From: a virus
Strand: one strand, 5' to 3'
Virus record (IMG/VR): IMGVR_UViG_3300046103_001182
DNA length: 37,171 nt
Shown: piece after piece, positions 6,040 through 29,083 of the stretch
Layout: each line of letters begins with the position of its first letter
Position numbering within the stretch: position 1 is the stretch's first letter
Notes under the pieces: model-generated
What the model was told of the DNA's origin: nothing
The model's input: the letters and a program-made list of their open reading frames with translations, nothing else
Databases searched by the model: none
Program-made: the position numbers and the translations under genes

Positions 6040-8207
6040 TGGAACCTGCTCAAGCTGCTACAACCAGTAAAGTTAAACTCCCCGATGGTAGAATCGTACC
6101 TGATGTGCCAAGAGGAACAAGTCAAACTGCCCTATACGACACCCTAGTACGTGCTGGGCAGTTGGACCCTGAAACTGCAACCTCTTGGTTAAACACAGCA
6201 AGGGAGGAAGTAAAACTCTCTCGTCAACCTCAACGCGGCCAAGGGGGTCCTCAGGGAGCCTTTGGTCCCGCTGGTCCTCCTACACCCCTAGGTGCAGACC
6301 CTAGGGCAGCTATGCCCCCAGCTCCCGTGGGTTCACCCATTACTAATGAACTTAGAGGGTCTCCGCCCCCTTACGCCCAAGGGGGAGCCTCTATGGGGCA
6401 AGTTGTTGAAGATATTGGTGGCGCGGTAGGGAGAAATATGGATATTCCTGGGGGAATAGCGGGAGCTGCATTAGGCGCTAAACTGGGGACCGTTGGTGGT
6501 CTTCCTGGGATGGTTGGTGGCGGCATTGTTGGTGGAGGCATAGGAACTTTTGGTGGCAGTATTGCAACGGATTACATTGAGTCAGGAGAACCTGATTTTA
6601 GCGAAGCAGCAAAAGATTCTTTAATCTCAATGGGTTTTGACATAGCTACATTAGGAACTCTAAAGTTATTTAAACCCGCAGCAAGAGCTATGGGGTTTGG
6701 ACCAGAAGAAATATCGGCGCTATGGGGAAAACTATCAAAGACAGTGGACCCTAAGGCTTTACCCGTGGGGTCTTCAGAGTCTTTACAGCAAACTCAGAAT
6801 CTTTTACAAGAGTCTGGTGGGTCTTTAAGAGCAGCTCAAGCCGCACAGAAAGGAGAGAATCAAATAGGTAATGTTGCTGAAGCTCTTGCCGAAGTAGGCG
6901 TAGGATCAGGGGGTTATTACAAAAGGTTAGACGCTACTAACACAGAGACAATCGCTAACCGACTACAAAGTATGATGAACGATGCTTTTGAAAAAGGAGC
7001 ATTAGAAACAAATAAGGTAGGGGAGTATGTGTACGGGGCTATACAAGGCGGTAAGAAGGCTGCTACTAAGCTTTATTCGGACGGCCTTGACAAGATTACC
7101 CAACAATATGGCAAGAAACAGCTCAATGCTGCAAACTATTGGCTCGGGTTAAAGCGTTTTAGAGACAAGGGACAAAAAGTTTACGGTTCTGACTATAGTC
7201 CTGAAACTTTAAAGTTTGTAGATGAGTGGATGGACACACTGGGAAAATTAGATACAATGTCTGTAGAGTCTGTTTTAGGGATGCAAAAACAAATAAACAG
7301 ACGCATTAGAGACATGGGTGCTTTTAGCAACACTGCTGAGATGCAAGCAGCTTCTAGGGAACTAGCCGAGCTTTCTAAAACTTTTAGAGAAACTACCTAT
7401 AAATCGTTTGATAATATAAATCCACAATTAGGCGCAAACGCAAGGCAGCTTAATGCTGACTATGGTAAAGCTATGGACGGTCTTTTACCAGAATTAAATA
7501 AATCATCAGTTGTTTCTGGAAGTAAAGAGGGGTACGAAAGTATTGCTTCTTCGTTACGAGGTAAAAACCCCGATACAATTAAAAAGTTTTTAACTTCAAT
7601 AGACGTAGCGTATGAGCAGGCAGCTAAATCAGGCATAGACATGACAACGGTAGGCGGTGTAGCTACCGCTAAAGAAGCAAAAGCACTTATTAAAGCAGGA
7701 TACTTAAAGAGTATTTTTGGTGAAACCCCTGATACTCTAAAAGCTTTTACAACTGGGCAGCGTAACTTAGCTGTAGACTTAGAAAAAAACTCTGCTGCGG
7801 TTAAGTTAATTTTAGGAGAAGACTACAATACTTACAAAATGCTTGTCAACGCTTTAAATGAATCAAGCAGGACACAGGGAAGCGGAATAGGCTCCCTAGT
7901 TTTAAGGTCTAAAGAAGCAGGGGCTGCGGCAGATGTCGGGCAAGTAGCTGTAGGGGGTACAGTGGCTTTGGCATCAATCCCCGCCGCACTAGCTATATTC
8001 TTAGGCCCTATGTTACTCCGTAAAATGGTGTCAAGCCCTGCGGCAGTCCGTAGACTAATTGCAGGTAAAAAACGTATTGCTGCCGCTACTGCTGCTGGAA
8101 AAGTAGCTTCTGTTTCAACCATAGTAGAAGAGACTCTATCTGGAATTATGGGGTCATTTAATGAAGAAGAACAAGCAGAAATACGTCAATCTATGCGACA
8201 ACAATAG
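6039..8207 (+). CDS. Large internal virion/ejection protein with Gly/Pro-rich segment and glycine-zipper hydrophobic region
   Basis: 722-aa ORF with TAATG coupling. Contains GQGGPQGAFGPAGPP and GGIAGAALGAKLGTVGGLPGMVGGGIVGGGIGTFGG. Confidence 0.65.
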   Translation: MEPAQAATTSKVKLPDGRIVPDVPRGTSQTALYDTLVRAGQLDPETATSWLNTAREEVKLSRQPQRGQGGPQGAFGPAGPPTPLGADPRAAMPPAPVGSPITNELRGSPPPYAQGGASMGQVVEDIGGAVGRNMDIPGGIAGAALGAKLGTVGGLPGMVGGGIVGGGIGTFGGSIATDYIESGEPDFSEAAKDSLISMGFDIATLGTLKLFKPAARAMGFGPEEISALWGKLSKTVDPKALPVGSSESLQQTQNLLQESGGSLRAAQAAQKGENQIGNVAEALAEVGVGSGGYYKRLDATNTETIANRLQSMMNDAFEKGALETNKVGEYVYGAIQGGKKAATKLYSDGLDKITQQYGKKQLNAANYWLGLKRFRDKGQKVYGSDYSPETLKFVDEWMDTLGKLDTMSVESVLGMQKQINRRIRDMGAFSNTAEMQAASRELAELSKTFRETTYKSFDNINPQLGANARQLNADYGKAMDGLLPELNKSSVVSGSKEGYESIASSLRGKNPDTIKKFLTSIDVAYEQAAKSGIDMTTVGGVATAKEAKALIKAGYLKSIFGETPDTLKAFTTGQRNLAVDLEKNSAAVKLILGEDYNTYKMLVNALNESSRTQGSGIGSLVLRSKEAGAAADVGQVAVGGTVALASIPAALAIFLGPMLLRKMVSSPAAVRRLIAGKKRIAAATAAGKVASVSTIVEETLSGIMGSFNEEEQAEIRQSMRQQ

Positions 8208-17353: not shown

Positions 17354-17596
17354 TTAAACCTCTATGGCTACGTCTGCCCACGATACAAACTCTTCTTGCA
17401 TTTCTTCTATATCATTGAGATTAGTATACCATTCTGCAAAAGCATCGTCAACTTCCTCATCTATGACAATAGAATCTAACGGTGGCTCCGTAAACACTAC
17501 GGTCTGTAATGGGTTGTTACTGTCAGGCATTAAAGCAACAATAGATGAAGCTCTAACGTACACTGGCGAACCTTTAAAACTAAACTGGCATATCAT
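17354..17596 (-). CDS. Small acidic protein, function unknown
   Basis: 80-aa ORF with TAATG coupling to the helicase stop. Confidence 0.6.
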   Translation of the reverse strand: MICQFSFKGSPVYVRASSIVALMPDSNNPLQTVVFTEPPLDSIVIDEEVDDAFAEWYTNLNDIEEMQEEFVSWADVAIEV

Positions 17597-19218
17597 TAGA
17601 ACTCTCCCTTAAAGTCGCTGTCTTCTGGCTCACTGGGCTTTGGTACTTCAACCATACGCCCTGTGTCTCTTGAGTATTTTAGGTAACACGCTGGCCCTGT
17701 TTCTCCTGTGTATCTGTTCTTCAACACACGGATTAGCGTAGTATTTCTCAACTCTTCACTCTCAGCCTGCTGGTCTCTCTCCAAGCCTATCACCATGTCG
17801 CTCAACTGCGCGATAGATTGAGAGCCACGTAGCTCACCTAAGCTTATGCGACCGCCTTCCTCATGGCTGGTGCCGCCTGAGCGTCTAAGGTGACTAATGA
17901 GAAACATGCCTATGTTAAGCTCTGCCACAAGCCGCCTGAGCCTAGTCATAACCTCGTCTATAGCCTTACGCTCGTCACCGTTTTCCTGTGCCGACACAAT
18001 TATAGAAAGGTGATCTAGGACAATGTACTTACAATCATTAGCCTTGACCATGAAGCGTATCTTAGACAACAGGGAGTCCACGGTAGGTGAGTCCCAGTTA
18101 CCATAAAGAAGGTAGCGCCCTGTGCCTAGGGTCTTATCGAAGTAGGGGCGTAGCGACTCCATGTCGGCCTCTTCCTCAAGGTGTAGGGTACGGTTGGCAG
18201 CTATGGACATAATGCCCATGCCTGTGCGCTCTACGGTCTCTTCTAAGGCCAGTACGCCTATGTTGTGTGGGGTAGCCCCGAGCAGGTAATACTCCAGCTC
18301 TCTCACAAACTGAGACTTACCCATACCAGAGCCTGATGTAATAGTGACCAGCTCCTCTCGGATACCTCTGGTCAACACGTTAAGACCCTCCCATGGATAC
18401 GGAATGCTCTTTGTTTTCCTGTACTCTACCAGAGAGCCCCAGAGGTCAGCCCCGTTAACAATACCCTCGGGCGCGTAGTCCCTAGCGTCCCACCATGCCT
18501 TAATAAAATCCCTAGAACCCGCTGACAGTAGGTACTCGTTGGGGTCTTTCTTTGACATCTTTACAATCTTAAGCTTTCCTGGGCTGAAGAGGTCTTGTAC
18601 TTCCTTTATGGCGTCCTTACCTGCCTTGTCACTGTCAAAGCACACAACGATAGTGTCGTAGCCCTCAAGGAATGCAAGCTGGGCCTTAAGCTCCTTGAGG
18701 GCACTAGAGGCCCCGTTTCTAACCGATACCACATCGTACTTTCTCTCGAACATCTGGGACACACTAAGGCAGTCCAGCTCTCCCTCTGTTATCGTAATGT
18801 ACTTTCCGTTACCCCTGCACACCTGTTGCCCAAAGAGCATGGTGTTCGCAGGGGCTCCCGCTGGGCAGTAGAAAGCCTTATCCTCCACCACCCTCGTTTT
18901 GTAGCCTATAACGTCTGCGTTACTGTCAAACCAAGGGTAGTAGTGCTTATCAATTTCCCCCTTGGCGTCAAAGGATACCTTGACCCCGTATTTGTCACAG
19001 GTAGCGCGGTCTATGCCCCTGTCCTTAATGTGACTGAGTGTTGCGTTTTGCATGTTTTGTCCTTGCTTAGGTTCTATAATTACTTTCTCGACTGTCTCTC
19101 CCGAAGACCCTGTGAAGGTCTTGCAAACAAAGCACCACCGAGTACCGTCTGTATACAGCATGTTGCCGTCTGACGAGCCACATGACTCACAGGGTCCCTT
19201 GCTTATGATCTTACCCAT
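17596..19218 (-). CDS. Bifunctional primase-helicase (T7 gp4-like)
   Basis: Zn finger CESCGS...CFVCK; TOPRIM ITEGELDCLS and DSDKAG; Walker A GSGMGKS; Walker B IVLDHLS. The start is placed at ATG 19218 (MGKIISK) behind GAGGAG rather than the track start 19239. Confidence 0.93.
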   Translation of the reverse strand: MGKIISKGPCESCGSSDGNMLYTDGTRWCFVCKTFTGSSGETVEKVIIEPKQGQNMQNATLSHIKDRGIDRATCDKYGVKVSFDAKGEIDKHYYPWFDSNADVIGYKTRVVEDKAFYCPAGAPANTMLFGQQVCRGNGKYITITEGELDCLSVSQMFERKYDVVSVRNGASSALKELKAQLAFLEGYDTIVVCFDSDKAGKDAIKEVQDLFSPGKLKIVKMSKKDPNEYLLSAGSRDFIKAWWDARDYAPEGIVNGADLWGSLVEYRKTKSIPYPWEGLNVLTRGIREELVTITSGSGMGKSQFVRELEYYLLGATPHNIGVLALEETVERTGMGIMSIAANRTLHLEEEADMESLRPYFDKTLGTGRYLLYGNWDSPTVDSLLSKIRFMVKANDCKYIVLDHLSIIVSAQENGDERKAIDEVMTRLRRLVAELNIGMFLISHLRRSGGTSHEEGGRISLGELRGSQSIAQLSDMVIGLERDQQAESEELRNTTLIRVLKNRYTGETGPACYLKYSRDTGRMVEVPKPSEPEDSDFKGEF

Positions 19219-19261
19219 GGTTACTCCTCTTGGAAACATAGGGGCCCTGAGGCCCCTGTTA

Positions 19262-21101: not shown

Positions 21102-21374
21102 CTAATCGCCCAGATCATCCAGAGGGCTAGTGATACCCTCACGGGCGCTTGTCTGGTCTCCCCTGTGCCTAGGGCTAGACATCATCACCTCGTCCATGGC
21201 TTCCATGTGCGAATAGCCCTCCTCTATTAGCTCTAGGTAACGCCCTTCCTTTTTAGCGTACATACGCACTACGCGCTCACTAGGATTCTCAAATCCTGCG
21301 CCTACGAGCCAGTGGGCCCTACTACCGCGCAGTTCTACCTCGGCCTCAAAAATCTTCTTATAGACTTCTTTCAT
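21102..21374 (-). CDS. Hypothetical protein
   Basis: 90-aa ORF with ATGA-type overlap with the upstream gene. Confidence 0.6.
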   Translation of the reverse strand: MKEVYKKIFEAEVELRGSRAHWLVGAGFENPSERVVRMYAKKEGRYLELIEEGYSHMEAMDEVMMSSPRHRGDQTSAREGITSPLDDLGD

Positions 21375-21613
21375 GTTTTTACTCCCTTTGGTGGTACATC
21401 GAAAGCTAGGTTATAAGACGCCTCTAGCGTGTCGTAGTCCATTTCTTTGTGCTTGTCTATGTACATCGCCATGATGCGGTCCTTAACGTCACCTAGCGTG
21501 TATATATCAGTGTTAAAACAGGCCATGGCTTCTTCTATCGTCCATGTGCGGGTCTTACGCTCGCTCAGGTCGTACTCCATTATGGCGCGCTTCTCTCTCA
21601 TTTCTTTACTCAT
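21371..21613 (-). CDS. Hypothetical protein
   Basis: 80-aa ORF, coupled at both ends. Confidence 0.6.
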   Translation of the reverse strand: MSKEMREKRAIMEYDLSERKTRTWTIEEAMACFNTDIYTLGDVKDRIMAMYIDKHKEMDYDTLEASYNLAFDVPPKGVKT

Positions 21614-21813
21614 CTTAATCCCCTTATAAGTTTCTCGTGTTGAACGGCTCTCTCGTGCAGCTCCTCAGCTATAAGCATGTGGTTTTCTGCGGAGGTTATA
21701 GTCCAACTGAGTAATCTCCGCGTTCCTCCCGCGCTTACAACTTTATTTATGTCATTTTGGAGAGCCTGAAGCAGCTCGTCTGCTGACATTTTTTGTAATT
21801 CCTTTTTACTCAT
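21610..21813 (-). CDS. Hypothetical protein
   Basis: 67-aa ORF, coupled at both ends. Confidence 0.6.
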   Translation of the reverse strand: MSKKELQKMSADELLQALQNDINKVVSAGGTRRLLSWTITSAENHMLIAEELHERAVQHEKLIRGLR

Positions 21814-21967
21814 CTATCTGTACTCCTTTGTGCTTACGATGCCCACGCTTGGACTTCGCTTTACGGTCCTCGAAAGTATGCGCTAGGTTAAACGTCCTAG
21901 CATGTTTAGCTACAGGGTTTCCCCTAGCGGCTATCTGTTTATCCTGTACTACTCGCTTGTGTCCCAT
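21806..21967 (-). CDS. 53-aa highly basic micro-protein, ArfA-like tail (MGHKRVVQDKQIAARGNPVAKHARTFNLAHTFEDRKAKSKRGHRKHKGVQIDE)
   Basis: Hand translation, checked codon by codon. It fills the 21972-21814 gap and its stop overlaps the next ATG by 8 nt. The pattern NPVA....F......DRKAKSKRGHRKHK recalls ArfA (..[21 protein letters not shown]). Confidence 0.55.
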   Translation of the reverse strand: MGHKRVVQDKQIAARGNPVAKHARTFNLAHTFEDRKAKSKRGHRKHKGVQIDE

Positions 21968-21972
21968 CGTCC

Positions 21973-22752
21973 CTACGCCCTCATGCGGTCATCATAAAAC
22001 AAGCGCATTGTATCATGCGCATCATCGTCTTTGCTGTGCAATAGTGGTGAATTTGCCAGATAAATAGCCCTTGACATTCCTCTGGGCGTCAGGCTGCGAA
22101 TGTACTTTGTACGCGCTGACTTCCCGCCTAGCATCTTGTGGCATGGGTTGACCTCACCCTCTGGCCGCTTGTCAATCAGGTAGTGGTGCGGCATCTCGGC
22201 ACCGTTAGAACACCATAGCCCTGTTTTTTTGTTATATATGTCCCGTGGCGGGTAATACTCTGGAAACTCTGGGTGTACGTCATCCACAGGTAACAAACGC
22301 TGGAATTCGTAGGGCTGCACGTACCCTGTGGGCCTCTTCCACGTTGTGGCTAGTACACTCACGGGATTTTCTACGATAGACGGACACGGCCAGCACTCTA
22401 CAAGCCGCGCTAGGGCTACCGCTTCCGTTTGAAAATCAGGGTTGTCTCTACGCTTACGCGCAAAATGAGCCGCACCCGAGACGGCCAAATCTGTGCATGG
22501 CGCGAATGACAGTATAAACGAGGGCGCAGGTAGCATTAAACCCGCTAGGGCGTTGTCTACGCGCTTATCTGCGTCACGCCCTACTAGGTCTACGTCTAGC
22601 CGACTATGACGCGGGTGCGTCCATTGTGGGCGCTCTGTGTCGCTGTGGTCTGTGTCGCTATGGTCTACACTAACACAGTGGTATCTACCATCGTCTAGCC
22701 ACGGTTGTACTGCGTAGCGTGAGCTATTAAACAGAAATAATATTGTTTTCAT
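21973..22752 (-). CDS. C5-cytosine-methyltransferase-fold protein with divergent motif I
   Basis: Motif IV-like SFAPCTDLAVSGA is followed 42 aa later by motif VI-like SIVENPVSVL, then a C-terminal RSLTPRGMSRAIYLAN. The N-terminal beta-strand TILFLFNSSRY lacks FxGxG. The start is placed at MKT (22752), coupled ATGA to the micro-ORF. Confidence 0.55.
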   Translation of the reverse strand: MKTILFLFNSSRYAVQPWLDDGRYHCVSVDHSDTDHSDTERPQWTHPRHSRLDVDLVGRDADKRVDNALAGLMLPAPSFILSFAPCTDLAVSGAAHFARKRRDNPDFQTEAVALARLVECWPCPSIVENPVSVLATTWKRPTGYVQPYEFQRLLPVDDVHPEFPEYYPPRDIYNKKTGLWCSNGAEMPHHYLIDKRPEGEVNPCHKMLGGKSARTKYIRSLTPRGMSRAIYLANSPLLHSKDDDAHDTMRLFYDDRMRA

Positions 22753-22841
22753 AGTAAACCTAATCCCCATCCGAATATTAAACCCATAGCCACACCCGTA
22801 CAGCATAGCAGTAAAAAGCCAGTTATATCATTATTACTCAT
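22749..22841 (-). CDS. 30-aa hydrophobic micro-peptide (MSNNDITGFLLLCCTGVAMGLIFGWGLGLL)
   Basis: Hand translation, checked base by base. The ATG lies inside the last codons of 22834..23139 and its TGA overlaps the ATG at 22752. Confidence 0.5.
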   Translation of the reverse strand: MSNNDITGFLLLCCTGVAMGLIFGWGLGLL

Positions 22842-23139
22842 TTCTCAATCCTCTTTTAATCACTATCCTAGTATCGGAAATGCCCACAAGGGCGCGAGTA
22901 CACTCACCCGCCCACACTGTTACCTTTTGGCTGGTGGTATCTATTAGGCCGCCATGTTTACCCGCTGTCACCTTGCGTAGTTTGCCAGTGGTGGCTTTTG
23001 CGTACACTATCCATTCACCCTCTATGGTAGTAGTAAACGTGTCACCACCCTGCCACCCGTGTGACGCTAGGCCTTGAACCCATACCCTATGGCCCTTTTT
23101 AGTGGGCGTGATTGTAGTGTTAAATATTTTCTGTTTCAT
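22834..23139 (-). CDS. Hypothetical small beta-rich protein
   Basis: 101-aa ORF with ATGA overlap with the upstream gene. Confidence 0.6.
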   Translation of the reverse strand: MKQKIFNTTITPTKKGHRVWVQGLASHGWQGGDTFTTTIEGEWIVYAKATTGKLRKVTAGKHGGLIDTTSQKVTVWAGECTRALVGISDTRIVIKRGLRNE

Positions 23140-23522
23140 ACTGATACCCTCACTTGTCTGTTTAGCAGTAGTGCTTTACGTGTGCCAGTGTACGCGCTCT
23201 CGTCTGACACGTATACAAAAGATTCATACTTATACGGATTGTAAGTTATCGGTACCATGTGTTCTGTTATAGGCGTATTAAACGGCACCCAATACCCCAC
23301 TAGACCCGCATGGACATTCTTTTTACGCTCACGTAGTACGCGCTCACGACCCGCTTGTGATACTCTAGGGGATACGTCCTGTAATACCACGCCACGCTTG
23401 TGTGCAATCACACGGCCCTTGTGTGGGCCGTCTAGCGCCCTGACAGACCATAGCTTACGATGTAAGTTAAAATACACGTACACGCGCTGTCCTGTAGGTT
23501 TCCCATCTCTTTTGTTTTTCAT
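23136..23522 (-). CDS. Conserved-looking basic phage protein, function unknown
   Basis: 128-aa ORF. The pattern VYFNLHRKLWSV...VHAGLVG looks familiar from other phages, but I cannot name a family. Confidence 0.6.
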   Translation of the reverse strand: MKNKRDGKPTGQRVYVYFNLHRKLWSVRALDGPHKGRVIAHKRGVVLQDVSPRVSQAGRERVLRERKKNVHAGLVGYWVPFNTPITEHMVPITYNPYKYESFVYVSDESAYTGTRKALLLNRQVRVSV

Positions 23523-23525
23523 ATC

Positions 23526-24380
23526 CTAACCCCTTGCGATTATGTTATTGAATTCCGCTACGTTTTGAGCCGTTACAAAAAAAGACTGATAACCCTCACC
23601 CGCGCGTTGCGTCTTATTACTACCTTTACGCTTTAAGATTCCTATGGTACCGCTAGAATCCAACGGGCGTAAGTCTGTAGTGTCAAACGATACCGCGTCA
23701 CTAGGTACCTGTATATTATCGGACTGTAATCCCTTCGTATTGTACGCTACCGCTATTTTGTAACGCGATTGTACTGCTTTTTTTAGTGCTGCTTTGCTTT
23801 GCACACTGTGCATACTAGCAGAAAATGTTAGGTCGTAATTGTCCAGTGTATTTTTACGGACACGCGACAATATTTTTGTATAGTCGTAAAATTGTGATTG
23901 TGGGCGCTCTGCTATAGTGTCAGAAAAGTCTAGGTCGCTAGTGCCGTTTAAACGAAACAGAGCGGGTATACCAGTTTTAACGGCTTTGCGCTCTGCTTTG
24001 TCTATATCTGCTTTTAACTGTAATACAAAGTAATCGTAGCGCATTAAATACCAGATGGTACGCTTTGTGGCGGCCCTGTCCGCGTTACCCTCTGCTATAC
24101 CTAATTGACCACTAGACTTTAAACAGGGCGCTTTACATCCACCTGCCACTGCCATAGCGCAAATGGTATCTAAAGCTACCTTGTCCGCTGGCTGCATATA
24201 AACAATATAGGTATCACGTTTGTCTGGTACACCCTCCGCGTTACCCTTCTCTACTTTTGTACTGGTACCTAAAATACGCATAGGTGTATTAAGATACTCT
24301 ATATTACTGTACGCCCACAATTTAGCCTTATTAGTGAGTAGCTTTGTATACATTATGTCTTTGCGAGTAATAGATAACAT
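23526..24380 (-). CDS. Cys-triad protein, possibly GP88-family-like, function unknown
   Basis: CAMAVAGGCKAPC (C-x7-C-x3-C) is followed by a basic helical segment. The start is placed at ATG 24380 (MLSITRK, AGGGA upstream) because a promoter lies inside the longer track ORF. Confidence 0.6.
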   Translation of the reverse strand: MLSITRKDIMYTKLLTNKAKLWAYSNIEYLNTPMRILGTSTKVEKGNAEGVPDKRDTYIVYMQPADKVALDTICAMAVAGGCKAPCLKSSGQLGIAEGNADRAATKRTIWYLMRYDYFVLQLKADIDKAERKAVKTGIPALFRLNGTSDLDFSDTIAERPQSQFYDYTKILSRVRKNTLDNYDLTFSASMHSVQSKAALKKAVQSRYKIAVAYNTKGLQSDNIQVPSDAVSFDTTDLRPLDSSGTIGILKRKGSNKTQRAGEGYQSFFVTAQNVAEFNNIIARG

Positions 24381-24417
24381 ACTGTTTAATCCCTGTGGTT
24401 TTTGTGTGTGTCCTGTA

Positions 24418-24445
24418 ATTATAGGGCCATATTGTATTATGTCTA
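24418..24445 (-). promoter_or_regulatory. Leftward sigma70 promoter PL (TAGACA-16-TATAAT)
   Basis: On the minus strand the -35 is TAGACA (24445-24440) and the -10 is TATAAT (24423-24418), about 40 nt upstream of ATG 24380. Confidence 0.65.
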
Positions 24446-24550
24446 TGGTAATATTAACATTTAAATAGCTGTACTTTATACGGCACCTTATGCTAGGGAA
24501 TATATACAACCTTCATTCTATTATGCGTGCGCGTGCGAATAGCACAATAC

Positions 24551-24773
24551 CCTATGGTTGTCTATAGTAAATAGTACCTTGCAATGATAGGTGTACCAGT
24601 GTAGGGCATAGGGTGCCATAGGCACCCGCCTAGGCCCACACTCCCCATGGTTGTCAATAGTATTGTGGGGTAATAATAGTGTGGACAGTCCCCTATGGTT
24701 TATGCTAGGGCCCCAGTGGATACCATAGGGGAACCCAGTGAGTACCATAAGGGAACCCAGTGAGTACCATAGG
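24551..24773. repeat. Array of CCATAGG / CCTATGG heptamer sites, including a 17/19 direct repeat
   Basis: Sites at 24551, 24607, 24616, 24644 (variant), 24692, 24723, 24745 (variant) and 24767. CCTATGGTTGTCTATAGTA (24551-24569) matches CCCATGGTTGTCAATAGTA (24644-24662) at 17 of 19 positions. Confidence 0.85.
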
Positions 24774-24780
24774 GGAACGG
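24721..24780. repeat. 22-bp iterons TACCATAGGGGAACCCAGTGAG x2.7
   Basis: Units begin at 24721, 24743 (1 mismatch) and 24765 (partial), preceded by the related CCCCAGTGGA. Confidence 0.9.
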
Positions 24781-24788
24781 TCCTGGAG

Positions 24789-24819
24789 TTATCCACAGGT
24801 TATCCACAGGTTATCCACA
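24789..24819 (+). promoter_or_regulatory. Three perfect tandem DnaA boxes (TTATCCACA) at 11-bp spacing
   Basis: TTATCCACAGG x3: boxes at 24789-24797, 24800-24808 and 24811-24819. Confidence 0.85.
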
Positions 24820-24890
24820 GGGGTCGGGGGGGTGTCGCCAAGTTTTTTCCTGATCGTGTAGCCGCACAATTTTACTAGGGGGTAAAACTG

Positions 24891-24940
24891 GCCCCTTTGG
24901 TTTAATAGTGCCCCATTTTGGTTTAATAAGGCCCCTTTGG
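24891..24940. repeat. Direct repeats GCCCC(A)TTT(T)GGTTTAATA x2 plus a partial third
   Basis: 24891-24907 and 24910-24928, then GCCCCTTTGG at 24931-24940. Confidence 0.85.
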
Positions 24941-25018
24941 ACGGTGTTTATACGCCTCAAAAACCATTAAGAATCAATAGGTTACTAAAGGTAACACCGG
25001 GTAACAAAAGGGACGCCA

Positions 25019-25037
25019 GTTTCTGCGGGACCAATGG
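25019..25037. repeat. 19-bp exact direct repeat, copy 1 (GTTTCTGCGGGACCAATGG)
   Basis: Identical to 25174-25192. Confidence 0.95.
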
Positions 25038-25060
25038 CTTGTAATTAGGCAATATTTAGC

Positions 25061-25089
25061 TTGACAGGTAACGCCTTATCTGTTATACT
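25061..25089 (+). promoter_or_regulatory. Rightward sigma70 promoter PR (TTGACA-17-TATACT, extended -10 TGT)
   Basis: TTGACA 25061-25066, 17-bp spacer, TATACT 25084-25089, preceded by TG at 25081-25082. Confidence 0.75.
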
Positions 25090-25100
25090 ACACCTAAGGT

Positions 25101-25148
25101 ATAAGAAGAAAAAAAATATTATTTAATTATAAATTAATTTATTAAAAT
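25101..25148. other. AT-rich tract of about 48 bp (2 G, 0 C); candidate DNA unwinding element or AT-rich leader
   Basis: ATAAGAAGAAAAAAAATATTATTTAATTATAAATTAATTTATTAAAAT. Confidence 0.6.
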
Positions 25149-25158
25149 CCTAAGGAAG

Positions 25159-25174
25159 CCATAGGTACCTATGG
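25159..25174. promoter_or_regulatory. Perfect 16-bp palindrome CCATAGGTACCTATGG (two inverted CCATAGG sites); operator-like
   Basis: Read directly. It extends to a 22/24 palindrome and covers ATG 25171. Confidence 0.8.
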
Positions 25175-25590
25175 TTTCTGCGGGACCAATGGGTTATAGG
25201 AGGGATTCTTTGATTGACACTGAAAAAAAGATAGGAAGACCAAAAAAGTCTAAGGCCCAAGAAAACCTACCTTCAAAGCCTAGGTCTGATCGTAGCATTA
25301 TGGAGGCGTACAGACAGCGCCTCTTAAACAGCCCATCTAGTGAAAAGGTAATAAGAAAGGTGTTCCAAACAGCCTTAGACGATGAGCATACCCACCAAGC
25401 TGCGTGTATGAAGATGATAATGGATAGGGTGTTACCTGCCACTGGTTTCTCCGAAGTAGTGTCTGGGGGACAACAAAGACAGTCAATACAAATAAATATC
25501 AGCGGTCTTCAGAGTGTAGAGGTTAACTCACAGGGTTCTGAGCCAGACGCCGAAGACGCTGTATTTACCCCTGTGGTGGACAATGGGTGA
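25171..25590 (+). CDS. Probable small terminase subunit (start uncertain: ATG 25171 or TTG 25210)
   Basis: Lies immediately upstream of, and overlaps, the large terminase. Basic N-terminus KKIGRPKK; the ...MKMIMDRVLP segment resembles small terminases. TTG 25210 has AGGAGG 6 nt upstream. Confidence 0.55.
   Translation: MVSAGPMGYRRDSLIDTEKKIGRPKKSKAQENLPSKPRSDRSIMEAYRQRLLNSPSSEKVIRKVFQTALDDEHTHQAACMKMIMDRVLPATGFSEVVSGGQQRQSIQINISGLQSVEVNSQGSEPDAEDAVFTPVVDNG
25174..25192. repeat. 19-bp exact direct repeat, copy 2
   Basis: Identical to 25019-25037, 155 bp away. Confidence 0.95.
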
Positions 25591-26842
25591 TTTAAACGTA
25601 TCCCTACTCCCGTGGCAGCAAGAAGTCTGGGCTGATGACGCCCGGTTCAAAGTAATAGCTGCGGGTCGTAGGTGTGGTAAAAGCCGTTACGCGGCCTACA
25701 GGCTCCTTGTAGAAGCCCTCCAGACTACCAAGGGAGAGGTTTTTTACGTTGCACCTACGCAGTCCCAAGCAAGAGATATTATGTGGAAAACCCTCATAGA
25801 GATAGGGGGTGATTTAATAGAAAAAAGTCACATAAACAACTTACAACACACACTCGTTAACGGCACCACAATATCGCTAAAGGGTGGAGATAGACCAGAT
25901 ACCATGAGGGGCATAAGCCTTAAGTTCCTTGTAATAGATGAGTACGCCCAAGTTAAGCCTTTTATCTGGGAAGAAATACTAAGACCAGCCCTAGCAGACT
26001 TAAAGGGTGACGCTGTGTTTATTGGTACCCCTGAGGGGCGTAATCACTTTTACGATCTGTATATGTACGCAGACACTAAAGAAGACCCCCAGTGGAAAGC
26101 ATGGCACTTTACATCCTATGATAACCCACTCCTAGACCCCGAGGAAATAAAAGGGGCTCAGAAATCAATGTCTTCTTATGCTTTTAACAAAGAATTTAAG
26201 GCATCGTTTAACGCCCAGGGCTCCGAAGTATTCAAAGAAACATGGCTTAAGTTTGACAAAGAGGAACCCAAAAGAGGTGACTATTACATAGCCATAGATT
26301 TAGCGGGTTTTGAAACCCTAGGAACTAAGCAAAGAAACACACGGCTAGACGATACAGCCATTAGCGTTGTAAAAGTAACAGACGAAGGGCACTGGTGGAT
26401 TAAAGAGATTATTTACGGGCGCTGGGATTTAAAAGAAACAGCACAAAAGATATTCAAAGCCGTTTCTAAATACAGGCCCGTAGCCGTTGGTATAGAAAGA
26501 GGCATAGCACAACAAGCTGTCCTAAGCCCCTTGAGCGACTTGATGCGTAGAGAGAACAAATACTTTAACATACAAACGCTAACCCACGGTAACAGAAAGA
26601 AATCAGACCGTATTATTTGGTCACTACAAGGGCGTTTTGAACACGGTAGGATAAGCTGCAACGAAGGAGAATGGAATACAAAGTTCATGGACCAGCTATT
26701 CCAGTTCCCCTCACACCTAACCAAAGATGACCTCATAGATTCCCTAAGCTACATAGATCAACTAGCTACAGTTCCGTATTGGAACCTAGAAGACATGGAC
26801 GAAGACACCTACGAATCCTTAGATATAACAAGCGGGTATTAA
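25583..26842 (+). CDS. Terminase large subunit
   Basis: Walker A AAGRRCGKS, Walker B FLVIDEYA, and C-terminal RNaseH-like acidic residues (AIDLAG, DDTAISVV, DDLIDSLSY). Confidence 0.9.
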   Translation: MGDLNVSLLPWQQEVWADDARFKVIAAGRRCGKSRYAAYRLLVEALQTTKGEVFYVAPTQSQARDIMWKTLIEIGGDLIEKSHINNLQHTLVNGTTISLKGGDRPDTMRGISLKFLVIDEYAQVKPFIWEEILRPALADLKGDAVFIGTPEGRNHFYDLYMYADTKEDPQWKAWHFTSYDNPLLDPEEIKGAQKSMSSYAFNKEFKASFNAQGSEVFKETWLKFDKEEPKRGDYYIAIDLAGFETLGTKQRNTRLDDTAISVVKVTDEGHWWIKEIIYGRWDLKETAQKIFKAVSKYRPVAVGIERGIAQQAVLSPLSDLMRRENKYFNIQTLTHGNRKKSDRIIWSLQGRFEHGRISCNEGEWNTKFMDQLFQFPSHLTKDDLIDSLSYIDQLATVPYWNLEDMDEDTYESLDITSGY

Positions 26843-26845
26843 ATT

Positions 26846-29083
26846 ATGGCAAGTGCAGAAATTATAGACGATAGTCCCTTGGAACCTAGGATGCTAGAAG
26901 ATAGCTCGTCCATCAAAGGCTATGTCATAGACCTTTGCCAAGAATGGCAAGAATACGTGGAATCTAATCACTTTAGCCAGTGGGATGAGTTTTATCGCAT
27001 TTGGCGAGGTATTTGGGCTGAACAAGACAAAACAAGACTAATGGAAAGAAGTCGTATTGTTACCCCTGCGTCCCAACAAGCAGTAGAAAGTGCTGTGTGC
27101 GAAATTGAAGAAGCTACCTTTGGTCAGGGCTTTTATTTCGACATTCGTGACGATAACCTCGAATTAACCAAATTAAGAAAGAAACAAAACATGGCACCCC
27201 CTGTGCCGCCAATGGCACCCCCAGGACTCTCAGGGGCACCCCAAGGAGCAGGGCCTCAAATGCCCCCTATGGGCCCTAGCGCCCCTGCCCTACCCCAAGG
27301 TATGCCTGCGTCTCCAATGCCTCCTCAACAGGCTCCTATGAGCCCTGAAGAGGCTATTGGCAATGACATGGCTTATTTAAGACGCCAACTAGAGCAGGAC
27401 ATGAAAAAACAAAGAGTAAGGGCTGCTACAGCAGAAGTTCTTATTAACGCCGCTGTTTGGGGCACAGGGATAGCCGAGGTTGTTATTGCTGAAGAAAATG
27501 AAATGAAACCTGCGTCTGAGCCTGTTATGGGTGGAGAAATGACCGCTTATGGAGTCAATACTACCCCTAGAGTAGTTGTTAAAATGAAGCCTGTGCTTAT
27601 CAAAAACTTCCGCATAGACCCAGCAGCTACCAGTGTAGAGGGCGCACACGGCGTTGCTATACAGGAGTTTGTTCCCACACACCAAGTTAAACAACTCCAG
27701 AGAGATGGCGTTTATCGCAAAGGAGCCATAGGCACAGCTTCTACGGATATGGACTTAGAGCCTGACCCCGATATAGACGTAATTAACACTGACGGTAAAG
27801 TAGAGCTTCTTAAATATTTTGGTTTAGTCCCTAAGCGAATGCTAACTTTAGCTAAAGATGAAGCAAGCCGAGAAAAAGACGAAGAAGAAGAAGAGGGAGA
27901 CTTAGAAGACCTCAGTATAGAAAACCAAGATGATGACGATGACGATGACGAAGGTGAGCTGGTAGAAGCTATTGTTATTATAGCCAACGGTGAGTTTTTG
28001 CTCAAGGCAGAAGAAAACCCGTACATGATGAAAGACAGGCCCATCGTAGCTTTTCAATGGGACATAGTTCCAGGATTGTTCTTTGGCAGAGGTGTTGTAG
28101 AAAAAGCGTATAACAGCCAAAAAGCTTTAGACGCTGAGATTAGAGCCCGTATAGACGCACTAGCCCTTACAATACACCCCATGATGGCTATGGATTCTAC
28201 CAAAATACCCCGAGGCCACAAACCTCAAATCATACCCGGAAAGATGATTTTAACTAACGGCGCTCCCAACGAAGTGCTTATGCCCTTTAAATTCGGGGAC
28301 GTTAGCCAAATATCTTTTGCTCAAGCAGGGGAACTACAGAAGATGGTACAGCAAGCCACGGGCTCTGTGGACTCTTCTGGTGTAGGTGGGGCCATTAACG
28401 GAGAAGCTACAGCCGCTGGCATTAGCATGTCCTTAGGTGCTATTATAAAGCGACAAAAAAGAACTCTTATTAACTTCCAAGAAAACTTCTGGGTACCCTT
28501 TGTTGAAAAGAGTGCTTGGCGGTACATGCAGTTTGCCCCTGAGATTTACCCTATAAAAGATTACAACTTTGTAGCCACCAGCACTTTAGGTATTATGGCT
28601 AGAGAGTATCAAGTAACTCAGTTAGTTCAACTATTGCAAACTATGAGCCCAGAGTCTCCTATGTATCCTAAGCTAGTAGAGTCTATTGTAGACAGTATGA
28701 ATATTAGCAACCGAGATGAGCTTGTAGATATTCTACAGCAAGCTTCACAACCTAAGCCTGAAGCAGAGCAAATGCAAAAACAAATGCACGGAATGCAGAT
28801 GGAAAACCAAGCTGCTGTCACTGACTACGCTAAGGCTCAAGCTGAGGAATCAAGGTCTAGGGCTAACAAGTATAATGCAGAAGCTCAGATGATGCCTCAA
28901 GAAGTTGAAATTAAGAAAATTGACGCAATTACTAAAAACCTGCAACCCGGAGCTGACGAAGACGCAGAGTTTACCAGAAGGCTAAAAATTGCAGACGTTG
29001 CTCTTAGAGAGCGAGGATTAGACATACAACAGACTCAAGCAGAAAACAAAAACCTTAGTAGCACCTTAAATGGAGGACAGTAA
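26846..29083 (+). CDS. Portal protein, with P/M-rich and poly-acidic insertions
   Basis: 745-aa ORF directly after the terminase and before the scaffold/capsid genes. I recognise no motif; the call rests on position and size. Confidence 0.75.
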   Translation: MASAEIIDDSPLEPRMLEDSSSIKGYVIDLCQEWQEYVESNHFSQWDEFYRIWRGIWAEQDKTRLMERSRIVTPASQQAVESAVCEIEEATFGQGFYFDIRDDNLELTKLRKKQNMAPPVPPMAPPGLSGAPQGAGPQMPPMGPSAPALPQGMPASPMPPQQAPMSPEEAIGNDMAYLRRQLEQDMKKQRVRAATAEVLINAAVWGTGIAEVVIAEENEMKPASEPVMGGEMTAYGVNTTPRVVVKMKPVLIKNFRIDPAATSVEGAHGVAIQEFVPTHQVKQLQRDGVYRKGAIGTASTDMDLEPDPDIDVINTDGKVELLKYFGLVPKRMLTLAKDEASREKDEEEEEGDLEDLSIENQDDDDDDDEGELVEAIVIIANGEFLLKAEENPYMMKDRPIVAFQWDIVPGLFFGRGVVEKAYNSQKALDAEIRARIDALALTIHPMMAMDSTKIPRGHKPQIIPGKMILTNGAPNEVLMPFKFGDVSQISFAQAGELQKMVQQATGSVDSSGVGGAINGEATAAGISMSLGAIIKRQKRTLINFQENFWVPFVEKSAWRYMQFAPEIYPIKDYNFVATSTLGIMAREYQVTQLVQLLQTMSPESPMYPKLVESIVDSMNISNRDELVDILQQASQPKPEAEQMQKQMHGMQMENQAAVTDYAKAQAEESRSRANKYNAEAQMMPQEVEIKKIDAITKNLQPGADEDAEFTRRLKIADVALRERGLDIQQTQAENKNLSSTLNGGQ

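Follow-up and report, generated by a model that had tools for sequence, protein, structure and literature searches.

Bioinformatic and comparative analysis of the viral sequence IMGVR_UViG_3300046103_001182 (IMG/VR; 37,171 nt, the whole of which is referred to here as the window) indicates, with a probability of roughly 0.6, that the five leftward genes at positions 21973-24380 belong to a mosaic early operon, in which an orphan Dcm-type methylase stands beside a recurrent GP88/gp82 gene pair and which would supply anti-restriction and takeover functions. Such a block, in which shuffled accessory genes and an orphan methylase make up an early operon, is an ordinary type of feature, and it offers two leads: the GP88-gp82 pair and an atypical branch of the Dcm family. 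The original prediction had read the same genes as a single horizontally acquired module. The features concerned, all on the minus strand, are:

24445->24418, minus strand: sigma-70-type promoter-like site (PL), TAGACA-16 nt-TATAAT, matching 11 of 12 consensus positions
23526-24380, minus strand: GP88-family gene, 284 aa, exactly 3 Cys, isoelectric point (pI) 9.5
23136-23522, minus strand: L5 gp82-family gene, 128 aa, pI 10.5
22834-23139, minus strand: g101, 101 aa, basic, pI 10.2
22749-22841, minus strand: hydrophobic 30-aa open reading frame (ORF), grand average of hydropathy 1.33
21973-22752, minus strand: Dcm-type methylase gene, 259 aa when started at the ATG overlapping the stop codon of the 30-aa ORF
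21806-21967, minus strand: DUF7230 gene, 53 aa, pI 11.1, Pfam PF23876 at 3.2e-12
21102-21813, minus strand: three small coupled genes of 67, 80 and 90 aa

The five ORFs, their sizes and their junctions were reproduced as originally described: in the order GP88/gp82/g101/30-aa ORF/methylase, the junctions are a 3-nt gap, ATGA, an 8-nt overlap and ATGA, and a Shine-Dalgarno-like motif precedes each of the five starts. A consensus scan also placed a putative near-consensus sigma-70 promoter, PL, directly upstream of the block, ending ~38 nt before the GP88 start codon, in agreement with the proposal that the genes lie immediately downstream of PL. The methylase start was set at 22752, where the PHROG match and all homologues begin, and not at the first in-frame ATG (22806). 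It should be noted that equally tight coupling runs on through four further genes (21102-21967; 5-nt gap, 8-nt overlap, ATGA, ATGA), so the limit of five genes is arbitrary and the block cannot be regarded as a bounded cassette. The five genes would instead form the promoter-proximal end of a longer leftward, presumably early, operon, a part of the original prediction that we retain. The next gene of this operon, separated from the methylase by the 5-nt gap, encodes the DUF7230 protein and is kept downstream of the methylase in relatives; the genes of 67, 80 and 90 aa had no family match in Pfam or PHROG scans.

To compare this arrangement with that of other phages, we surveyed gene neighborhoods (loci and proteins are designated by L and P numbers, respectively). 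The gene order found in the window is shared by the close relatives L013 and L017 alone, and the 30-aa ORF is absent elsewhere. Other subsets and orders are present in the remaining relatives: g101-GP88-small gene-methylase, lacking gp82, in L006-L011; GP88 without a methylase in L012; gp82-99-aa ORF-GP88-methylase in L014-L016, where the 99-aa ORF is not matched by g101 searches; GP88-gp82-methylase in L018; and methylase-GP88 in L106/L209. In L218, the slot is filled by two small unrelated genes. These loci share a loose scaffold consisting of g101, a variable slot, the methylase and DUF7230, with GP88, gp82 or unrelated small proteins occupying or adjoining the variable slot. A scan anchored on the methylase recovered 21 loci with a methylase of the window type (FNSS at motif I, see below) and 44 loci with a D..G-type methylase; g101 is present in 13, GP88 in 8 and gp82 in 3 of the former, and none of the three in any of the latter. 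The block is a mosaic of independently shuffled genes and not a fixed five-gene system. GP88, g101 and the methylase are orthologous in relatives (41-63% amino-acid identity), and only gp82, which is missing from L006-L012, behaves as an accessory insertion with a patchy distribution in this phage group. Together with the origin of the 30-aa ORF described next, these observations argue against the acquisition of all five genes as one module.

The 30-aa ORF lies within an 85-nt insertion (22753-22837), at whose ends the alignment with L013 and L017 breaks exactly. In these relatives (88 and 82% nucleotide identity, respectively) the insertion is absent and the g101 stop codon abuts the methylase ATG, which corresponds to the ATG of the 30-aa ORF in the window. 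The insertion regenerates an ATGA-coupled methylase start and also yields a spurious extended methylase ORF of 277 aa. This 277-aa form was found in metagenomes (P0121), and no other copy or homologue of the insertion was detected in loci L001-L204. The 30-aa ORF is an insertion product. As for g101, we found no match in Pfam, NCBIfam, PHROG, phage-database or PDB searches; its homologues in relatives (41-45% identity) are confined to this marine phage group, and the distance from the gene to the methylase downstream of it is usually 0.8-2 kb.

Base composition had been taken as a further sign of horizontal acquisition. The GC content of 22000-23500, estimated earlier at 52-60%, is 49.9% when computed, compared with 46.3% for the genome; among 1500-bp windows this value ranks at the 96th percentile, with the maximum located elsewhere, near 18 kb. 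The proposed CpG enrichment is real, with an observed/expected ratio (o/e) of 1.10 over 21973-24380 vs. 0.67±0.07 in 14 other non-overlapping windows (z≈6), and the 1% of sliding windows that reach 1.10 all overlap this region. Its place was misjudged, however: the raised block extends over ~21200-24200 and peaks at 1.26 in the AT-richer GP88 gene (23526-24380), which had been deemed ordinary. The excess is synonymous, as CGN codons make up 0.71 of Arg codons vs. 0.42-0.48 elsewhere, and NCG codons 0.28 of NCN codons vs. 0.10-0.15 elsewhere. The GP88 gene is also CpG-elevated relative to its flanks in L006 (0.93 vs. 0.60), L009 (0.98 vs. 0.67), L012 (1.31 vs. ~1.0-1.1) and L013 (1.25 vs. 0.71). 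Since the orthologues in relatives share this elevation, it is a stable property of these early genes within the phage group and not a mark of recent transfer, and it is better explained by a different choice of synonymous codons in early genes than by recent import. Tight coupling together with a local shift in composition is insufficient for calling a horizontally acquired functional cassette.

The predicted Dcm-type methylase

The 259-aa protein matches phrog_757 ("DNA methyltransferase") with an E-value of 4.9e-54 over residues 18-264 of the 277-aa form. Homologues are present in 1,507 phage records, many of them T1-like and many annotated as C-5 cytosine methylases, with 41-46% identity over these ~1,500 genomes; identity is 43-46% to the methylase genes of T1-like and Klebsiella phages and 42-48% to Tunavirus and Klebsiella phage homologues. 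The protein harbors a catalytic PC (C86), ENP (E128), KK (K175/K176) and RSLTPRG, with SFAPC86TDLAVSG as the context of motif IV and VE128NPVS as that of motif VI. No variation occurs among 58 homologues at C86, E128, N129, P130 and K175, conservation of K176 reaches at least 90%, and the acidic residues at the expected positions of motifs II and III (D30 and D55) are conserved as well. A Tunavirus homologue has C82, E128, K175 and K176, which align with C86, E128, K175 and K176 of the window. These are the active-site residues named for K42 Dcm, the product of a 711-bp dcm gene of the Drexlerviridae phage K42, described in a preprint on retron Ec86, which produces 5-methylcytosine at CCWGG as determined by liquid chromatography-mass spectrometry (bioRxiv 10.1101/2023.08.16.553469). 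In addition, M.HhaI (sequence identical to PDB 10mh) matches phrog_757 over motifs I-VI (E = 4.9e-5). Because of this profile match, the activity of K42 Dcm and the shared catalytic residues, phrog_757 is, as judged from sequence, a real C5-methylase family.

The protein of the window resembles K42 Dcm in PHROG family, in the order of PC, ENP, KK and RSLTPRG within the family, in its aligned catalytic residues, in size (~235-260 aa) and in being an orphan without a cognate nuclease. It differs at motif I, where the window reads FLFNSSxY in place of SLFDGSG or another D..G form, K42 Dcm being a D..G-type member. The FNSS sequence is present in the window and in all 57 aligned close homologues, and further marine loci have FNSS, FNHS or FNNS; in contrast to the FDGSG, YDYTG or FDKTG of T1-like, Klebsiella and other phrog_757 members, the residue at the expected Gly position is variable in FNSS-type methylases. 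With respect to M.HhaI and E. coli Dcm (PF00145), the PC motif retains its nucleophilic Cys and the ENV/ENP motif its Glu, whereas an FxGxG loop is lacking and the target-recognition region is very short. This marine Dcm branch, in which the S-adenosylmethionine (AdoMet) loop motif is replaced and every catalytic residue kept, deserves a biochemical check.

We consider it moderately likely that the 259-aa protein methylates cytosine at C5 via Cys86, which would shield phage DNA against one class of restriction enzymes, an estimate lowered for the altered AdoMet loop. A smaller possibility is that the FNSS-type subfamily may have lost normal AdoMet binding and carries out another adduct formation or a deamination at C5/C6 of cytosine. 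The membership in phrog_757, a family that includes K42 Dcm, supports the DNA-modification function suggested earlier for the block. The accompanying statement that none of the five proteins could be assigned a function now needs qualification, as three of them have families (GP88, L5 gp82 and phrog_757) and a predicted function can be given to the methylase, while the statement still holds for GP88, gp82, g101 and the 30-aa ORF. No PDB match for the methylase was obtained by sequence or profile search, and NCBIfam and PADLOC scans gave no matches; a TcmP-like partner for the methylase was dropped for want of an NCBIfam match.

Restriction-type palindromes are strongly avoided in the window genome, including CAGCTG (0 observed vs. 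13 expected), AGCGCT (0 vs. 12.6), AACGTT (0 vs. 11.3), CTGCAG (0 vs. 9.2), GAGCTC (0 vs. 7.8) and GGCGCC (0 vs. 5.3), which shows heavy restriction pressure. Among short sites, CCGG (14 vs. 62), GATC (37 vs. 71) and CCWGG (17 vs. 78), the last being the site of K42 Dcm, are avoided too. A reading of the CCWGG/CCGG depletion as a methylation footprint was rejected, since both sites are equally depleted in methylase-less relatives, and CCWGG is depleted in HMO-2011 and CRP-143 as well; moreover, all single-mutation neighbors of these sites are enriched, not only the products of deamination. The depletion is restriction avoidance.

A separate observation concerns the cluster A mycobacteriophage Wizard007 (L005). 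Genes 76 and 75 of this phage (4221-5316), both annotated as "DNA methylase," appear to be a split C5-methylase located just downstream of gp82 and an SprT-like protease; the match of gene 76 to PF00145 is confined to the N-terminal half (profile positions 3-161 of 324), and no Pfam match was obtained for gene 75.

The GP88 and gp82 families

The first gene of the operon encodes a 284-aa protein that matches Pfam GP88 (PF17338; E = 1.3e-23, 84.5 bits vs. a cut-off of 24.4) and phrog_1617 (E = 3.8e-37), and all 57 close homologues match PF17338. With 3,876 clusters at 50% identity (E≤1e-3), this is a large family. Its most conspicuous feature is a triad of cysteines, C74-x7-C82-x3-C86, which is invariant in both homologue alignments and corresponds to a family motif, C-x6-10-C-x3-C, that 136 of 141 full-length representatives carry. 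RLNGTSD, FYDYTK, DxxDxRxxD and GLxAKG are likewise invariant throughout the family. Across homologues of 25-66% identity, including distant ones of only 25-33%, 21 positions are invariant, among them C74, C82, C86, R143-L144…T147-x-D149, Y165/Y167, D233/D236/R238/D241 and K252-G253. An AlphaFold2 model (predicted local distance difference test score, pLDDT, 81.8; predicted template modeling score 0.82) consists of alternating beta and alpha elements that form a predicted beta/alpha barrel, with the Cys loop following the first core strand. In BFVD, the model matches GP88-domain proteins at 5e-13, some of them 995-1211 aa long; PDB sequence and profile searches with GP88 gave nothing significant. 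From its context, GP88 is inferred to be a metal- or iron-sulfur (Fe-S)-dependent enzyme.

GP88 genes lie at or near the promoter-proximal ends of operons in several phages, mycobacteriophages and marine podoviruses among them, which, with the size of the family (~3,900 clusters) and its invariant three-Cys site, makes GP88 of wider interest. A homologue is gene 1-2 of alphaproteobacterial T7-like phages and several Autographiviridae, and it is located ahead of the RNA polymerase gene in the T7-like CRP-143, Lo5R7ANS and MedDCM-S46-C10. In Puniceispirillum phage HMO-2011 it is gene 01. In Wizard007 it is gene 84 of the right arm, preceded by genes 86 and 85 alone, and homologues are found in jumbo phages too. 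In being among the first genes to enter or to be expressed, these genes resemble the early anti-restriction genes of T7-like phages (e.g., T7 gene 0.3/Ocr) and conjugative leading-region genes; the likeness is one of position and context, and neither in sequence nor in structure is there any similarity to Ocr, ArdA or ArdC.

Two proteins, P0474 and P0433, combine GP88 with RadC-like JAB domains. For the RadC-like JAB domain, a role in processing nucleic acids has been proposed in the conflict proteins of mobile elements (PMC5512222), and such fusions, together with GP88 domains inside the phage proteins of 995-1211 aa, recall the polyvalent proteins of that study (Iyer et al., 2017), in which GP88 and gp82 are not named. 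Apart from RadC and gp82, PHROG and Pfam scans detected no informative extra domains in long GP88 fusion proteins. An assignment of GP88 to Pfam Gp37/Gp68 (DUF5131), derived from the GenBank annotation of one homologue, was dropped because none of the 57 close and 7 distant homologues match this family. We found no relevant literature on PF17338, phrog_757 or gp82/gp88 of L5/D29.

DUF932 and RadC-like genes are typical neighbors of anti-restriction genes in enterobacterial islands and plasmid leading regions. Two unrelated phages encode DUF932 (PF06067) proteins a few genes downstream of GP88 (L012, 7638-8570; HMO-2011, L004, 4544-5380). In L013, a 38.8-kb contig (ena:ERZ24888615, record labeled FRAM) that is nearest to the window in arrangement, gene calling divides GP88 (7044-7997) into three pieces (33, 147 and 95 aa), reflecting either assembly frameshifts or a decaying gene.

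The second gene encodes a 128-aa protein that matches Pfam Phage_L5_gp82 (PF25735; E = 3.7e-40, 137 bits vs. a cut-off of 27) and phrog_586 (E = 3e-41). Identity is 40% to the product of L5 gene 82 itself and up to 57.6% to mycobacteriophage proteins. As conservation within the family is unusually high (~50-60% identity between marine and soil members and those of mycobacteriophages), a 57% match to mycobacteriophage proteins is not proof of recent transfer. The AlphaFold2 model (pLDDT 91) is mostly beta with one helix, which carries the invariant motif S-x-x-G-R-x-R-V…E…N-V-H-A-G. No structural match of the model was found in PDB (best E-value 1.0), and no PDB sequence match was significant, the ribosomal proteins L21e and L24 (SH3/KOW-type) appearing at E-values of 0.17 and 0.61.

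To identify genes associated with gp82, we examined 80 gp82-anchored IMG/VR loci, representing 40 gp82 lineages at 70% identity. GP88 is present in 37 of the 80 loci (30 of the 59 with at least 3 kb of upstream sequence) and in 16 of the 40 lineages, a broad recurrence near gp82 that no other family shows. In all but one of the 37 loci both genes are on the same strand (36/37), GP88 usually lying 0.5-2 kb upstream (median gap 850 bp). In HMO-2011 they stand side by side as genes 01 and 02, in Wizard007 and Limnohabitans phage DC31 they occur in the same arrangement (7 kb apart in the latter), and they are found together in jumbo-phage-like contigs of 98-385 kb. Bacterial genome assemblies rarely contain gp82 (20 loci), and five of these loci carry GP88. 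GP88 and gp82 are linked by conserved proximity across lineages and by domain fusion.

With the right-arm early genes of mycobacteriophage L5 and other cluster A phages, the window shares clear membership in GP88 (1e-23) and gp82 (4e-40), and as in Wizard007, GP88 precedes gp82 close to where a leftward operon begins. In contrast, the two genes are adjacent in the window and five genes apart in Wizard007, and host and phage type are wholly unlike, an uncultured marine 37-kb phage being compared here with temperate actinophages. GP88-gp82 is a concrete pair that can be tested in cultivable systems, i.e., cluster A mycobacteriophages, HMO-2011 and the Roseobacter phage CRP-143. A further gene near gp82, located two genes downstream of it in a 385-kb phage-like contig (L101, 7192-7596), encodes an LPD29 domain (PF18847, "large polyvalent protein-associated domain").

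Proposed function and alternative explanations

We propose that the leftward operon would be read from the consensus-like promoter at 24445-24418, and that the variant present in the window would yield GP88, gp82, g101, the 30-aa ORF created by the 85-nt insertion, and the methylase. Cys86 of the methylase, aided by Glu128 and Lys175/176, would attack C6 of the target cytosine and transfer a methyl group, and the resulting mark on phage DNA would prevent host restriction enzymes of matching specificity from cutting. GP88 would act as an enzyme with a beta/alpha barrel, a three-Cys metal or Fe-S site and invariant Asp, Arg and Lys residues, and gp82, a small basic beta protein, would be its optional partner. 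Both may act on nucleic acid or a nucleotide at the onset of infection, in establishment, anti-defense or takeover.

Several points weigh against this proposal. For the methylase, none of the 58 family members matches PF00145, an hhalign comparison of the methylase profile with M.HhaI alone returned nothing, and the motif I position reads FLFNSS where the family usually has (F/Y)DxxG, the Asp being replaced by Asn and the Gly lost; methyl transfer by the FNSS-type subfamily is thus inferred by homology. The strong avoidance of restriction sites shows that the operon genes give no blanket immunity to restriction. The association of GP88 with gp82 is one-sided, since only 2 of 80 GP88-anchored loci carry gp82, which implies that GP88 works without it, and the one protein that carries both domains, P0424 (423 aa), is known from its protein sequence alone. 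The Cys loop of the GP88 model is of low confidence, and Foldseek found no significant PDB neighbor for this model (best E-value 0.04). No literature on GP88, gp82 or g101 was found, and the "early" timing is deduced from the consensus promoter match and gene order alone.

A bolder extension, which we regard as doubtful though worth stating, is that GP88, as a Cys3 metal or Fe-S enzyme, and gp82 constitute a widespread, previously unrecognized two-part phage system that would be expressed first in infection and act chemically on host or phage nucleic acid, or on a nucleotide, against host defense or for establishment.

Among the alternatives, it is conceivable but unlikely that GP88 and gp82 are host-takeover factors directed at host RNA, the ribosome, transcription or nucleotide pools, with the methylase being a mere neighbor. 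This would agree with the promoter-proximal position of the genes and that of GP88 ahead of the RNA polymerase gene in T7-like phages, with the basic character of both proteins, with the weak, non-significant resemblance of gp82 to L21e and L24, with a PADLOC scan without matches and with the fact that GP88 mostly occurs without any methylase. However, there is no positive evidence for a particular target, and the GP88-RadC fusions point instead to nucleic-acid processing in mobile-element conflicts.

That the five genes are a single horizontally acquired cassette encoding one multi-component DNA-modification or anti-restriction system is improbable. The tight translational coupling, the local CpG anomaly and the presence of a methylase would fit such a system, as would the finding of GP88, gp82 and a C5-methylase close together in the distant lineages L128, L186 and Wizard007, in the last of which a canonical PF00145 methylase comes after gp82. 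On the other hand, the components assort independently and in varying order among relatives, the coupling extends past the five genes, the 30-aa ORF stems from an insertion, and the CpG elevation is common to orthologues. Moreover, an enrichment of C5-methylases near the GP88+gp82 pair was rejected, as they are no commoner there (10 of 54 loci) than near GP88 only (12 of 89) or gp82 only (9 of 58), and GP88, gp82 and g101 are missing from all the D..G-type methylase loci.

We give an equally low probability to GP88 being a radical-SAM-like Fe-S enzyme that, with gp82 or g101 as an accessory and together with the methylase-like protein, whose SAM loop is altered, installs a hypermodified, non-methyl cytosine in phage DNA. 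The invariant three-Cys loop after the first strand of a partial beta/alpha barrel is reminiscent of the activases PflA and NrdG, and the nearest non-family models are TIM barrels that include the pyruvate formate-lyase activating enzyme (PDB 8fo0/3c8f; E 0.24-0.25, TM score 0.21-0.37); BFVD likewise returned this enzyme, NrdG and Radical_SAM proteins at E-values of 0.07-0.9, and hhalign placed the GCxxxC of GP88 on the CX3CX2C of E. coli PflA (probability 0.9%, E = 0.059). The non-canonical motif I of the methylase, and the presence of GP88 in 8 of the 21 FNSS-type loci, are also compatible with this idea. Nevertheless, every structure and profile match is non-significant, PflA and NrdG rank below sugar-epimerase and xylose-isomerase-type TIM barrels, the spacing C-x7-C-x3-C of GP88 (C-x6-10-C-x3-C in the family) departs from the radical-SAM motif CX3CX2C, the GGE or ribose motifs are not established, and none of the 57 close and 7 distant homologues matches Radical_SAM in Pfam. 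Furthermore, 77 of 89 GP88-only loci lack a nearby methylase, the strong avoidance of palindromes speaks against a broadly protective hypermodification, and the idea that the FNSS-type methylase depends on GP88 was rejected, since GP88 is missing from 13 of the 21 loci.

Genome setting and further features

The window resembles a complete phage genome (GC 46.3%, CpG o/e 0.70). Structural genes run rightward and wrap round to ~11.4 kb, including a terminase (25583-26842) and a portal-sized ORF (26846-29083), among others, and the leftward genes span 24380 down to 11528. The leftward set contains a primase-helicase homologue (17596-19239) with 41-57% identity to the Toprim/DnaB genes of relatives, adjoined by a DNA-polymerase-sized ORF. 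A nucleotide search of the phage collection gave no match for 21500-25200. The phage has no cultured close relative, and the identity of its terminase to entries of this collection does not exceed 34%. Many metagenome contigs of 33-39 kb (JGI, ENA, one sample labeled FRAM) belong to the same group, and Tara proteins likewise match GP88. The group is one of uncultured marine phages of 35-39 kb.

A terminator-like hairpin, GCGCATGATACAATGCGC followed by TTGTTTTATG, is located at 22003-22020 on the minus strand, inside the methylase gene and in its final 50 nt; shuffled sequence contains no fewer such hairpins than the block does. Relatives encode a small Sigma70_r4/helix-turn-helix protein (61-64 aa) between the methylase and DUF7230, which the window lacks:

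L013, 9593-9781: Sigma70_r4/helix-turn-helix gene
L006, 8104-8289: Sigma70_r4/helix-turn-helix gene
L009, 8086-8280: Sigma70_r4/helix-turn-helix gene

A divergent promoter-like site, TTGACA-17-TATACT, faces PL and is directed toward the structural genes. The 790 bp between the divergent promoters (24381-25170) are dense in repeats and are probably a replication origin or a regulatory hub. The repeats are:

24788-24821: three exact tandem GTTATCCACAGG units, each with a perfect DnaA-box consensus TTATCCACA
24712-24778: three 22-nt iterons CCCAGTGAGTACCATAGGGGAAC, plus a weaker copy at 24595
24896-24937: two 21-nt repeats
25019 and 25174: copies of a 25-nt repeat

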